Source of the DNA: Nanobdellota archaeon
GTDB lineage: Archaea; Nanobdellota; Nanobdellia; Woesearchaeales; GW2011-AR9
NCBI GenBank assembly: GCA_038044525.1
Contig: JBBSZV010000025.1
Span: 1 to 49,891, forward strand
Direction of reading: 5' to 3'
Length of the DNA stretch: 49,891 nucleotides
Shown: positions 21,157-25,932 of the stretch, in pieces
Numbering within the stretch: the first letter of the stretch is position 1
How the letters are laid out: each line of letters opens with the position of its first letter
Program-made: the position numbers and the translations under genes
Notes under the pieces: generated by a model
What the model was told of the DNA's origin: nothing
The model's input: the letters and a program-made list of their open reading frames with translations, nothing else
Databases searched by the model: none

Positions 21157-21194
21157 ATTATCTACGTTTAAACTGTATAAACCAATTTAAGCCG
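21157..21194 (-). repeat. Direct repeat copy A (ttattatctacgtttaaactgtataaaccaatttaagc)
   Basis: 29 bp are identical to 25904-25932; about 38 bp match with two indels. On the minus strand it contains TTTATA. It lies just 3' of the Fic gene and ~140 bp upstream of the DGR operon start. Confidence 0.7.
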
Positions 21195-22163
21195 TTAAAG
21201 ATATTGATAATAAATCTCAAAGAACTTCCGATAGGTTTCTTTTGCTTTTTCTATTCCAAATCTCAACAAAGGAATATAATGGTCTGTATCCGCTGATTGT
21301 AAGGCCTTGATATATTTAGCGCGATGAGTATTCCTGACAACGACGGGGTAGTATCCTTTTTTGATTAAGATATAATTTAATAACATTCTTCCCACCCTTC
21401 CATTTCCATCAGCAAAAGGATGGATTCGTTCAAACTTATGATGAAACTTAAATGCCAGTTCTAAAGGATGTAATTTGTTTTCTTTCTCCAGATACCATTC
21501 CAAAAGGTTTTTTATTTCCTGAGATACGTATTCTGGAGCAGTTAATGCAACTGTTCCGCCTAAAATCATGTTTGGCAGCCTCTTATAGCCGATTCGCTCG
21601 TCAATATTCTTCATAAGCCTTTTATGCAATCCGATGATAAATTCTTCCGTTAGTTTCTTTTTGGAGTCAAATAACTCCGAAAAGACTTTATAAGAATTTT
21701 TAGCATCATAAACTTCCCTTAGATCAGCAGAAGCAATTATTTTATCTTCAAAAATAATCTCGGAAAAATTCTTTAAAGTAAGGGAATTGCCCTCTAATGC
21801 ATTTGATTCGAAAACAAAATTAGCCACAAACCTTTTTTTAATATCTTCCCAATCTTTTTTATTCAGCGATTTTCTAATTTCCTTATACTTTAAGTTCATT
21901 TCTTCTATCTTCTTTACTTCCTCGATGGTGAGGGGAAATCGCAAGGAATACCTCTTTGCAGCTTCCGATACTAAAAGAGAGGCGATTTTTGTATCCAGCT
22001 CTAAGGTAAATTTCTTCTTCTCTTTATCGATTGTTTCTGGAGATATTTCTGATTTTTTACCCAAAAACCTGCTGATCTTGTATACCTTCTTTCCGATTCT
22101 GATAGATTTATCTAAGTAAAGATAAACTTCTCCTTTTTGGATTCTTTCCTGCACAAAAACCAT
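21195..22163 (-). CDS. Fic/DOC family protein (putative AMPylase)
   Basis: 322 aa with the Fic motif HPFADGNGRVGR. Confidence 0.85.
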   Translation of the reverse strand: MVFVQERIQKGEVYLYLDKSIRIGKKVYKISRFLGKKSEISPETIDKEKKKFTLELDTKIASLLVSEAAKRYSLRFPLTIEEVKKIEEMNLKYKEIRKSLNKKDWEDIKKRFVANFVFESNALEGNSLTLKNFSEIIFEDKIIASADLREVYDAKNSYKVFSELFDSKKKLTEEFIIGLHKRLMKNIDERIGYKRLPNMILGGTVALTAPEYVSQEIKNLLEWYLEKENKLHPLELAFKFHHKFERIHPFADGNGRVGRMLLNYILIKKGYYPVVVRNTHRAKYIKALQSADTDHYIPLLRFGIEKAKETYRKFFEIYYQYL

Positions 22164-22265
22164 ACTCAGCAGTTATACCTACTTGTTTTTAAATATTTCT
22201 ATTTGTGTAGGTATAACTGCGTTCCCCCAGTAACATTTATAAATGTGGGAAATTATCCCTACATT

Positions 22266-22778
22266 ATGGAAACTATGCAAAATCAATTCTTCCTGAACCC
22301 CATGGCCAGGTATGGGGTAAGAGAATTAGCAAGAATCACTCGGCTGGACACCAAAACGGTGATGAAATACCTTAAAGAGCTGGTAAAAGAAAGGATAATA
22401 CTTAAACGGAAGGAAAAAGGAAAATATGCTTATTACGAAGCAAACCGCCTCTCCCGCATCTACAGGCATGAAAAAAGCGAGGCCATCGTAAAAAAAGTTT
22501 TTGCCAGCGGATTGATAGATTTCTTAGAGAAAAATATCTCGCCCGAAGCGATAGTCTTATTTGGAAGCGTGCAGAAAGGAACTTATCATAAGGAAAGTGA
22601 TGTTGACCTCTTCGTGCAGGCAGAGTACAGGCCGCTGAACTTGGGGAAATTCAACGCCCGGATTGGGCATAAAGTCCAGCTTATTTTTGAGAAAGACTTA
22701 ACTAAATTAAGCGAAGGGCTTTTGGAAAACATTTATAATGGGGTGGTGTTAGCTGGAAAATTAGTGGTTATCAAGTGA
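22266..22778 (+). CDS. Minimal nucleotidyltransferase (MNT) with N-terminal wHTH
   Basis: Start trimmed to ATG 22266 (METMQ...). GS-x9-SDVDL motif (LFGSVQKGTYHKESDVDLFV). Overlaps the downstream HEPN gene by 4 nt. Confidence 0.7.
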   Translation: METMQNQFFLNPMARYGVRELARITRLDTKTVMKYLKELVKERIILKRKEKGKYAYYEANRLSRIYRHEKSEAIVKKVFASGLIDFLEKNISPEAIVLFGSVQKGTYHKESDVDLFVQAEYRPLNLGKFNARIGHKVQLIFEKDLTKLSEGLLENIYNGVVLAGKLVVIK

Positions 22779-23571: not shown

Positions 23572-23586
23572 TTTCTTTGCCCCCTA

Positions 23587-25848
23587 TTATTTTTTTTCAG
23601 TTGTTGTTCTTGCTTTCAGCAATAGTTGTTCTATTCCCCCGCAGGCAAGCGGAAGACCGGTGAAGATTTTGCTCATTATTTCTTGCGTACTCAAATCTTT
23701 GAACAAGCCTAGTTCGCCAAGATTTTTTACTGCTTCAGAAACTAGTTTAGCATCTCCAGCCCTAGTAATAGCTGCAATAAGTTCAGGCGTAACTGATGAA
23801 GCCATTTCTTTGTAAGCCTTTGCATCGGTTTCTATTTTCTGAAGATATGCCGTGGTGTCAGCCTCGGCTCTTGCTAATTCAATATCCTGTTTGGCTTTAA
23901 GATATGCTAGCTCTTGGTCGCTCTTCATCTTCTCTACATTTAATTGGTTCTGTACTGTTCTTGTTTTTCTTTCTTTGTCTAAAGTTAAATCGAAGTCCAG
24001 TTTTGCGTGCGAAAATTCTCTTTCTCTTTCGAAGGATTCCACTTCTTTTGTAATCGAGTTTATCTTTAACTGCAAAGTTTCTTGTTTTAACCGCTCCTTA
24101 TCTGTTTCAAGATCAAAATTTCTTTGTTGAATTTTTCTTTCCACAGAAACTTTCTGCTCATACTCTTTATCTTTTAATTCATGTTCTATAACATTTTGTT
24201 GATAATCTACTAACAACTTTTCTAAGTTCTTGTCAAACAAGTTAATGTCCAGAACCTCTAAATCATATACGTGCATCCAGTTTTCAACAAATTTTTTCCC
24301 TGGACGTTTTCCCTCTGCACTTTTTTCTCCGAGAACACTAGCACGAATAATATCTGCACTATTAGCATAGAATGTTTCTAATGGCGTAGTGCGTACTGTT
24401 GCTCTAACTACTGACCCAAGATGGTCGCAGAGTAGGCCTACATAATCATTAACATTAAACCATTTATTCGCATCATCTGTAAAGGAAATTCTATACGAAA
24501 CCATAACATCTAATTTCACATGTTCCTTTGTTTCTACAGTAATTTTGTCAGATACTTTGTTGCCCTCCACCTGCAGAAAAGCTGTTGGTAATTTAGTTTG
24601 GTCGCTTTTTGGCTTCCCTGTGGAAAGATTGAGAATCTCCAGTTCTTCGGTAAAGCCAAGCACATACGTTAGTGGCCCTTGCAATACCTTTCTGTCTTCT
24701 CCGTTCTTAACCATTGCGGCATGATTTGGAGGCACGTCGATAGTGATTGCTTTCCTGGAATCTCTTTCTTTTATTCCATAAAGATTTGCGACCTGTTCAT
24801 CCAATGATCGTTCCACAATTTCTTCCTTAGTTGGATCAGGTAAATAACCTTTTGGTCCAACTGCCGTATCAATGACTCCCCCCTCCAAATTACGGACATA
24901 AATTCCTTCATTTTTTGAAAGTGAGATTGGTTTGACCCTCCCTTTTACTTCTAATTCTTCTGAGGGGAAGAATATTCCTTCTTTTCCATGTATGAATATT
25001 TCCTGTCCGGTGTTGAATTTTCCTTTGCCTAAAAGCTCTTCTAATTCTGTGGTATTATCATTTCTTTCTGTCGTAGAAAATTCTCGCAACACATAGAGGT
25101 GTAACCCTTCCTCTTTTTTATAAGGGAGCGCTTTTTCGATCACTTTATTTTCTTTTGTGTCAAAAGTTTCACCGACATTAGGAAAGACTACACTTGGACC
25201 GCGAACAATTCTTTTTTTGCCTCCAGTTTTTAGAGTGCAATATTCTCCATCTTGAAGTTTTATAGCTTCAAGAACATAAGTCTTACTATTTGCCTGCCGA
25301 CTACGAGAGAGCACTTCAATCCCATTGGGTGGTATGTAAAAACTAGTATCAGTTCCTTTTACAATCAGCTCATGACCTATTGTAGCATCACTCTCTGGAG
25401 TGGTCTCGTAAACTCTGGCAACTAAATATTCATCTTCTTTTAGTCTATGCCCCTGTACCACTTCAGCACTTTGCCCAGGCCATAGCGGAAAAGAAACTGG
25501 TCCTGGGATTACTAATTTTCTTCCTATCTCTAACTCAGTAGAAGGGTTCGGTCCTCTGGCATATTTCTGGTCATTCTTTTTAATCGGATTCTCTAGAACA
25601 ACGTACTCCGAAGAAGAAGCAGAAACAAATTGCTTAACTCCTTGTGTCCCTTCTTCGCCGATCACTGGTCGTACCAGCTTTGTAGTAGGATCAATATTAA
25701 CTATTCTTTCAGTATTGGAAAGGCTTACTTTGGTTGGACCAACATACATACTAATATCCCCTTTAGTTAGGTCCTGAATGTATGTAAACTCATTCATTGC
25801 CAACAAAATATCTCGTTCACGATTTTCCACCATTTTTCCAACCCCCAA
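23587..25848 (-). CDS. Major vault protein (MVP) homologue
   Basis: 753 aa. Vault-repeat-like N-terminal units ([12 protein letters not shown] vs MVP [23 protein letters not shown] vs KRVVKGEKSFFLQPGE; exact NEGIYV). The shoulder region matches MVP ([21 protein letters not shown] vs [33 protein letters not shown] vs NSARIIRTAVFG), followed by a ~150-aa coiled-coil cap-helix-like segment. Confidence 0.75.
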   Translation of the reverse strand: [753 protein letters not shown]

Positions 25849-25894
25849 AAAACATCAATAAATATTATTAGAATCGCAAGATAACTGTTTTCTT

Positions 25895-25932
25895 ATTAAT
25901 CTAACGTTTAAACTGTATAAACCAATTTAAGC
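25895..25932 (-). repeat. Direct repeat copy B, upstream of the MVP gene
   Basis: ttattaatctaacgtttaaactgtataaaccaatttaagc. The minus-strand TTTATA sits ~65 bp upstream of the MVP ATG and is a candidate archaeal TATA box. Confidence 0.7.

Follow-up and report, generated by a model that had tools for sequence, protein, structure and literature searches.

The stretch of DNA analyzed here (the window) is an entire 49,891-bp contig of a 'Nanoarchaeota archaeon' metagenome-assembled genome from Hainich groundwater, and it contains an exact 29-nucleotide (nt) direct repeat, one copy of which precedes a diversity-generating retroelement (DGR) operon and the other a gene encoding a homologue of the major vault protein (MVP). 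We cautiously favor the interpretation that a non-canonical promoter module, about 40-46 bp long, was duplicated here, and that the two units are possibly co-regulated. One copy would drive the long DGR operon, from a gene encoding a 221-amino-acid (aa) protein to the reverse transcriptase (RT), and the other would drive either MVP and a 106-aa gene or, in other members of the population, a small open reading frame (the mini-ORF) and the 106-aa gene. A preliminary description of this DNA had suggested either a shared promoter or regulatory cassette co-mobilized with these units, or att-like repeats left by insertion of a 4.7-kb block; the promoter or regulatory part of the first suggestion is best supported, and we found no support for the remainder.

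A 29-nt direct repeat ahead of two transcription units

On the plus strand the repeat reads ACGTTTAAACTGTATAAACCAATTTAAGC and is located at 21164-21192 (copy 1) and 25904-25932 (copy 2); on the minus strand both copies read GCTTAAATTGGTTTATACAGTTTAAACGT and include the TTTATA noted previously. The preliminary description placed copy 2 correctly but set copy 1 at 21166-21194, two bases too high, and its extension of about 38 bp with two indels is reproduced by BLAST, which aligns 21155-21192 with 25893-25932 at 38 of 40 positions with two 1-nt gaps. From the base composition, 1.3e-8 exact 29-nt repeat pairs are expected by chance in 49.9 kb. No third copy with three or fewer mismatches is present in the window, and none of 100 shuffles gave a match.

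Copy 1 begins 2 nt past the stop codon of a Fic-domain gene (21195..22163, minus strand) that has its own canonical leaderless promoter, and ends 140 nt ahead of the ATG (21023) of the 221-aa gene (20358..21023, minus strand), which encodes an orphan protein and heads the DGR operon; the position 3' of Fic and the distance of about 140 bp given previously are both right. The 140-nt spacer ends in a Shine-Dalgarno (SD) site, AGGTGG (21031-21036), and would supply a 5' leader of about 125 nt to the operon (21024..21147, minus strand). Copy 2 lies in the divergent spacer between MVP (23587..25833, minus strand) and a gene encoding a ribbon-helix-helix (RHH) family DNA-binding protein (25974..26249, plus strand), the latter being 41 nt away. 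Its end is 70 nt from the MVP ATG (25833) and 55 nt from an upstream in-frame TTG, confirming that it is upstream of the MVP start, although not at the approximately 65 bp first reported; the 70-nt MVP leader contains a GGGGG SD site. Both copies thus have the same orientation and point at SD-led minus-strand ORFs.

The exact core is flanked at its 3' side by less well matched sequence. In copy 1 (core 21164..21192, minus strand) this imperfect extension is AGATAATAAATACTAC at 21148..21163 on the minus strand, and it holds a predicted transcription start at about 21149-21152; in copy 2 (core 25904..25932, minus strand) the extension in the MVP-containing haplotype is the shorter TAGATTAATAA at 25893..25903, also on the minus strand. 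The form of copy 2 found in MVP-less members of the population (see below) is more similar to copy 1, matching it including the extension over 46 nt at 91%. The extension accounts for all of the differences between these two (4/17, compared with 0/29 for the core; Fisher p = 0.015), which suggests that the core is under either stronger constraint or homogenization. Beyond the 46-mer the homology of the two leaders is not significant, being equaled in 151 of 500 shuffles.

Evidence for a proposed promoter module

Archaeal promoters are recognized by TBP at the TATA box and by TFB at the TFB-recognition element (BRE) (PMC2699501). From 29 upstream regions in the window, Gibbs sampling yielded a position weight matrix (PWM) and a host promoter consensus that is a BRE/TATA motif of this type, sAAAnnTTTAWAWA. 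The motif begins 35-37 nt ahead of the ATG in about 15 of the 29 genes sampled, which are therefore probably leaderless, with transcription starting some 30 nt past the first T of the TATA box. G-rich SD sites lie 7-9 nt before the ATG at the DGR operon, MVP, and a few others.

Both copies of the repeat contain a TATA-like octamer, TTTATACA, on the minus strand, at 21174..21181 in copy 1, where it scores 6.2 with a TATA-only matrix, and at 25914..25921 in copy 2. It is the sole minus-strand TATA-only match of at least 5 in the 140-nt MVP-RHH spacer, and no other minus-strand match of at least 3 to the full matrix occurs in the region upstream of MVP (25833-25973). Because the neighboring gene is divergent, this spacer must hold the MVP promoter. 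The starts predicted from the two octamers, at about 21151 and 25891, fall close to where the homology ends, at 25893 for the pair in the window and at 21148 for copy 1 paired with the MVP-less form of copy 2; the repeated unit would therefore extend from about -41 to +4 and be as long as a core promoter.

Several observations weigh against this interpretation. A TATA-only score of 6.2 is attained at 230 of 99,768 positions (the top 0.23%), which is suggestive but not decisive. With the full BRE and TATA matrix the minus strand of the 29-mer scores 0.0-2.2, compared with 7.5-16.5 for the 29 training promoters, owing to the absence of the A-rich BRE, which in this window is AAA placed 3-5 nt ahead of the TATA box. 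The best full-matrix match nearby, GTAGATAATAAATA, scores 5.7 and is present in copy 1 only, and the plus strand of the repeat also scores 5.7, slightly above the minus strand. The invariance of the 29-mer within the population carries little weight, as the contigs are approximately 99-100% identical around both copies, and our scans recovered no third or conserved orthologous copy and thus provide no comparative proof of function. A duplicated sequence may, moreover, persist for some time without function. The plus-strand match, however, leads nowhere consistent, being antisense to the 3' end of Fic at copy 1 and, at copy 2, shortly ahead of the strong promoter that the RHH gene itself has, which scores 12.6. 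For the DGR operon, read-through from Fic or weaker boxes at 21159-21131 are possible alternative sources of transcription.

A promoter module of this kind could work as follows. TBP would bind the central octamer and set a transcription start some 30 nt farther on, at the point where the copies stop matching. With no A-rich BRE the element would probably be weak alone, and its activity may require, or be subject to, a sequence-specific factor binding the 29-mer; a factor acting on the invariant 29-mer would co-regulate both units. A local duplication or recombination event in the recent lineage presumably created the copy, and it may also have placed the orphan 221-aa gene before the AAA gene that follows it in the operon. 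That placement would have removed an older leaderless promoter, so that a promoter would be needed in front of the 221-aa gene. MVP would have been exchanged in later, behind copy 2, with the element already there.

Exchange of MVP behind an unchanged element

The window sequence recurs in many assemblies from Hainich wells H32, H41, and H51, and we aligned 26 such contigs to the window. Copy 1 lies between Fic (upstream) and the 221-aa gene (downstream) in all of the contigs that reach it. At copy 2 there are two haplotypes. In six independent assemblies (L003, L018, L019, L021, L025, and L026; wells H51 and H32) the segment 23585..25900 on the minus strand, which comprises MVP and its leader, is replaced by 119 nt containing an SD site and a 29-codon mini-ORF, the stop codon of which overlaps the start of the 106-aa gene (23251..23571, minus strand). 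The 106-aa gene is always the last in the unit behind copy 2, whether it follows MVP or the mini-ORF. The replacement sequence occurs nowhere else in the window, and these 119 nt of novel sequence rule out a repeat-induced misassembly as the cause of the MVP-less form.

The upstream breakpoint of the exchange, at 25901, adjoins the 3' edge of copy 2, 3 nt past the 29-mer, and precedes the predicted start by about 9 nt. The 29-mer and its upstream side are identical in both haplotypes. In the MVP-less form the 29-mer is followed by (T)AGRWAATAAATACYAC, which accounts for the 46-nt match to copy 1. Because the MVP-less form retains more of the duplicated sequence, the duplication probably came first, with MVP and its own leader swapped in later. 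Similarity between the SD regions of the MVP leader and the MVP-less form is marginal (equaled in 25-77 of 2000 shuffles). The 29-mer is invariant at both copies in all 26 contigs. Phylogenetic footprinting with the most diverged strain (L025) has no power here, its sequence being 99-100% identical around both copies.

The stretch from 20.25 to 26.7 kb is approximately 99-100% identical among strains whose adjacent AAA genes are only 66-88% identical, which suggests that this stretch was recently exchanged. The 17.8-kb Hain_H32 contig represented by L025 and L026 is itself a mosaic, matching the window at 99-100% over 20300-23500 and at 97.7% over 14688-16752, with its AAA, 384-aa, and 251-aa genes only 66-88% identical to those of the window. 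Past the gene for the variable-repeat (VR) protein it has no RT, and contains instead a second VR-protein-like gene (88% identical to 14712-15192) followed by a radical-SAM gene.

Distribution of the element and its relatives

We searched for further copies in several collections. A 20-mer scan of 185,579 species genomes returned only three chance matches, in one conserved Desulfobacterales gene with unrelated flanks; a scan of viral contigs (IMG/VR) returned none, and a 22-mer scan of metagenome contigs returned one contig, from the same population. A mismatch-tolerant scan of the window and the fetched loci gave, at 20/29 or better, only the two copies and the three Desulfobacterales matches (21/29); the count of two copies applies to these 49.9 kb and the related loci rather than to the whole genome. 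In a search of 5.8 billion proteins the 221-aa protein is an orphan.

The closest relative (L031, with 81% AAA identity) has a C-terminal fragment of the 221-aa protein upstream of AAA, but keeps only about 100 nt upstream, all of it coding. In four others (L027, L030, L035, and L036; 62-69% AAA identity), AAA is the first gene of the operon, in four different neighborhoods, and is preceded by a canonical leaderless promoter, for example acaaaaGGTTTATAAAA-N22-ATG, with an A-rich BRE visible by eye. There is no trace of the 29-mer in these four loci, the best match being 18/29. The one related MVP examined (52% identity) has a canonical BRE/TATA, a GGGGG SD site, and different neighbors. Since the relatives lack the 29-mer and have ordinary promoters, the element is likely to be young and lineage-specific, and not co-mobilized with either MVP or the DGR operon; the ordinary, different promoters of the related MVP locus examined and of five contigs with related AAA-led operons speak against that part of the earlier suggestion. 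The 221-aa gene itself appears to be a recent addition in front of AAA, and in the relatives the operon can presumably be driven by other promoters.

Three further observations concern these loci, among them, for MVP, L032-L034. The MVP relative with 52% identity, the closest match listed, is from a foreign metagenome (PRJEB12083) that also contains a related nanoarchaeal AAA operon. Among the best matches listed beyond the few closest, other MVP homologues are mostly bacterial, from Myxococcota, Planctomycetes, and Acidobacteria, at 40-47% identity. The 106-aa gene beside AAA in L027 and the 106-aa gene of the window are unrelated.

Alternative explanations

Of the alternatives, the one that survives best, although we regard it as unlikely, is that the 29-mer acts chiefly as an operator or upstream activating sequence (UAS) for a DNA-binding protein, such as the divergent RHH protein or the winged helix-turn-helix (wHTH) nucleotidyltransferase (MNT) encoded between the copies, with the weak AATAAATA / TTAATAAG just downstream acting as the TATA box. 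The site would then couple DGR expression to that of the MVP/106-aa unit and not be the core promoter itself. The combination of an invariant core and a variable extension is consistent with a binding site, and within the core there is a pair of near-palindromic octamers, GTTTAWAC, separated by 9 bp, as well as a dyad centered on TTTATA that is imperfect, TTAAATTG-N7-CAGTTTAA. The best minus-strand match to the full matrix, GTAGATAATAAATA, straddles the 3' edge of the 29-mer, and a missing BRE is as expected of factor-dependent archaeal promoters; the UAS recognized by GvpE likewise has two 8-nt parts, located directly upstream of the BRE in a divergent spacer (PMC2241852). Candidate factors are encoded nearby, including the RHH protein, the wHTH-MNT protein (22266-22778), and an AbrB-like protein (26780-27712), with the proximity of the RHH gene making its product a putative regulator. 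However, the dyad and fold are no better than those of shuffles (z = -1.2), GTTTAWAC is not enriched in the window outside the two copies, and the downstream TATA-like box is poorly kept among the three versions of the element, scoring 5.7, 3.8, and 1.2. With two sites only, no regulon can be defined.

A more ambitious form of this idea, which we find harder to credit, is that the 29-mer is a dedicated cis-regulatory site for the RHH protein or another local factor, serving as a single switch for the DGR and MVP/106-aa units and as an anchor for the exchange of first-gene cassettes. We know of no such regulatory site described for an archaeal DGR.

It is improbable that the copies are attL- and attR-like cores produced by site-specific integration into the DGR promoter region of a block consisting of the mini-ORF or MVP, the 106-aa gene, the putative HEPN gene, MNT, and Fic. 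They do resemble att sites: the repeats are direct, share one orientation, combine an exact core with arms that match imperfectly, and bracket accessory defense-type genes; Fic matches the PADLOC model PDC-S04/SoFic and MNT matches PDC-M05A. The block has a G+C content of 34-38%, somewhat below the 40-45% of the neighboring DGR operon, and the near-identity of 20.25-26.7 kb among strains with divergent AAA genes is a further point in favor of integration. However, searches with Pfam of ORFs of at least 85 aa in 9.9-29.9 kb and of the other large ORFs of the window, with several smaller ORFs outside that region left out, identified no integrase, transposase, or other recombinase in the block, its flanks, or those other large ORFs, and a scan of the window with ARAGORN for tRNA and tmRNA genes was negative; both copies are intergenic. 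Neither an empty site, with the RHH gene joined through a single core to the 221-aa gene, nor a circle junction is present in any of the 26 contigs, all of which keep the same neighbors, and the distant relatives are not syntenic, so that this comparison has limited power. The only indel in the population (23585-25900) touches copy 2 alone and has its other end elsewhere, and there are no relatives of Fic or the 106-aa protein in viral contigs, nor any phage similarity. The insertion proposed in the preliminary description therefore finds no support.

Slightly less probable still is that the repeat has no function and merely survives from a local segmental duplication or an illegitimate recombination event too young for it to have decayed, for although there are only two copies, with nothing further in the collections scanned and none in any relative, and the fit to the host promoter consensus is poor, MVP needs a promoter in a 140-nt spacer whose only TATA-like box is in the repeat, the differences are concentrated outside the 29-mer, the element has stayed intact through the MVP cassette exchange, and both copies are correctly oriented directly upstream of SD-bearing leaders.

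Three other types of element were considered and rejected. A CRISPR repeat does not fit only two copies 4.7 kb apart, with no array in the window and no Rfam match, and a miniature inverted-repeat transposable element (MITE) or insertion sequence does not fit two direct copies of 29-46 nt without terminal inverted repeats. A scan for bacterial sigma-70 promoters and intrinsic terminators gave promoter matches no commoner than in shuffles, and the organism is archaeal; terminator-like matches numbered 11, versus 4.4 ± 2.2 in shuffles, with none at either repeat, and these are bacterial-type signals only.

Relationship to known systems

As a promoter module, the repeat resembles an archaeal core promoter in having an AT-rich, TTTATA-type box upstream of and oriented to genes, a pyrimidine-purine step at the predicted start some 30 nt farther on, and a module length, from about -41 to +4, equal to that of a core promoter. 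It differs in lacking the A-rich BRE common to the 29 training promoters and the four AAA-operon promoters of the relatives, in preceding leadered, SD-dependent operons where about half of the genes here look leaderless, and in having a 29-nt core that is identical at two loci, unlike ordinary promoters.

The haloarchaeal gvp genes provide a second comparison, as the GvpE UAS is also a conserved element of 20-30 nt with two 8-nt parts beside a weak basal promoter, occupies a short divergent spacer, and is common to more than one transcription unit (PMC2241852). The repeat has no sequence similarity to any described UAS, however, and its cognate factor is only a candidate; its putative TATA box is inside the conserved element rather than downstream of it, an arrangement that fits a repressor operator equally well. 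Ptr2 and TFB-RF1 are further examples of factor-dependent activation of archaeal promoters.

Two other arrangements share features with this locus. Like att core sites, the repeat consists of direct copies with an exact core of tens of bases around accessory genes, but here no recombinase, tRNA target, or empty site was found, and the population indel is not bounded by both repeats. The alternation of MVP and the mini-ORF behind an unchanged promoter-like element is also reminiscent of the fixed promoter and exchangeable first cassette of integrons; there is, however, no integrase here, there are no attC-like sites, and there are two alternatives only. The exchange would be equally well explained by homologous recombination between strains via the conserved flanks.

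Genes and other features of the locus

The window carries archaeal housekeeping genes encoding a diphthamide synthase fusion, GatE, an ATP-dependent DNA ligase, and PEP carboxylase, and the host is therefore an archaeon. The genes discussed here have locus tags AABX64_01870 to 01895. Pfam agrees with the Fic, MNT, and MVP assignments made previously, the 748-aa MVP homologue directly behind copy 2 having both shoulder (6e-29) and vault repeat domains, and likewise backs the identities of the RT, AAA, RHH, and PIN genes. The supposed HEPN partner of MNT, a 144-aa protein (22775-23209, plus strand), has no match in Pfam, NCBIfam, or PADLOC, and its HEPN label is tentative. Together with the wHTH-MNT gene (22266-22778, plus strand) it makes up a convergent plus-strand pair between the 106-aa gene and Fic.

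In the DGR operon the 221-aa gene is followed by AAA (18719-20338), the 384-aa, 251-aa, and 454-aa genes, and a distal part composed of the VR protein gene (14692-15384), an RT-16 RNA, the template repeat (TR), and RT (13252-14490), all tightly packed. The RT-16 RNA (Rfam, 73 bits, E = 1.5e-9) is at 14460-14645 on the minus strand, between the VR-protein gene and TR. The long RT ORF, starting from GTG at 14490, overlaps TR (14379-14460), and the true RT start is thus probably further downstream. Within the 221-aa gene there is a perfect 33-nt tandem duplication (20688-20753), so that DAEQDDEDDD is encoded twice. No structured RNA or riboswitch was detected in the leaders, with no Rfam match even at E = 1 and folds no better than those of shuffles.

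The canonical BRE/TATA of the RHH gene, at 25945..25958 on the plus strand, scores 12.6 and is 13 nt from copy 2; its predicted start at about 25981 would give a leaderless mRNA beginning with the second ATG (25983). The protein from 25983 is 88 aa and has a weak, sub-threshold likeness to the NikR N-terminus and to CdrS and aCcr1, which are RHH regulators of the archaeal cell cycle. The 3' end of the RHH gene overlaps the convergent PIN gene by 9 nt, so this is not a classical RHH-PIN operon.

An approximately 200-nt structured element with several GC-rich hairpins is inserted in the PIN gene of L019, L020, and L025/L026, and is absent from that of the window. The insertion point is 26389/26390, and the element corresponds to L025 394-593 and the ends of L019 and L020. 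Over about 112 nt it matches window coordinates 241-352 at 96%, and it has no Rfam family at the gathering score; its appearance is that of a small mobile (MITE-like) element or of a structured RNA that is mobile. A coding repeat of about 294-312 nt runs off the right contig end (48601-49891) in at least five tandem copies, which are 68-97% identical and probably encode a repetitive surface protein.

Discussion

We have described here a pair of promoter-like repeats in a groundwater nanoarchaeon, which seem to be a local curiosity confined to one population rather than a new class of element. The twist is that an accessory cassette, MVP or the mini-ORF, is exchanged directly behind an unchanged element that also stands before an archaeal DGR operon. 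To our knowledge, little appears to be known of how DGR operons are switched on in DPANN archaea, and a shared promoter-like element ahead of both a DGR operon and an accessory unit offers a concrete, testable handle on DGR regulation. It also provides an example of how a compact archaeal genome may re-use a promoter module as genes are added, as with the 221-aa gene, or exchanged, as with MVP and the mini-ORF.

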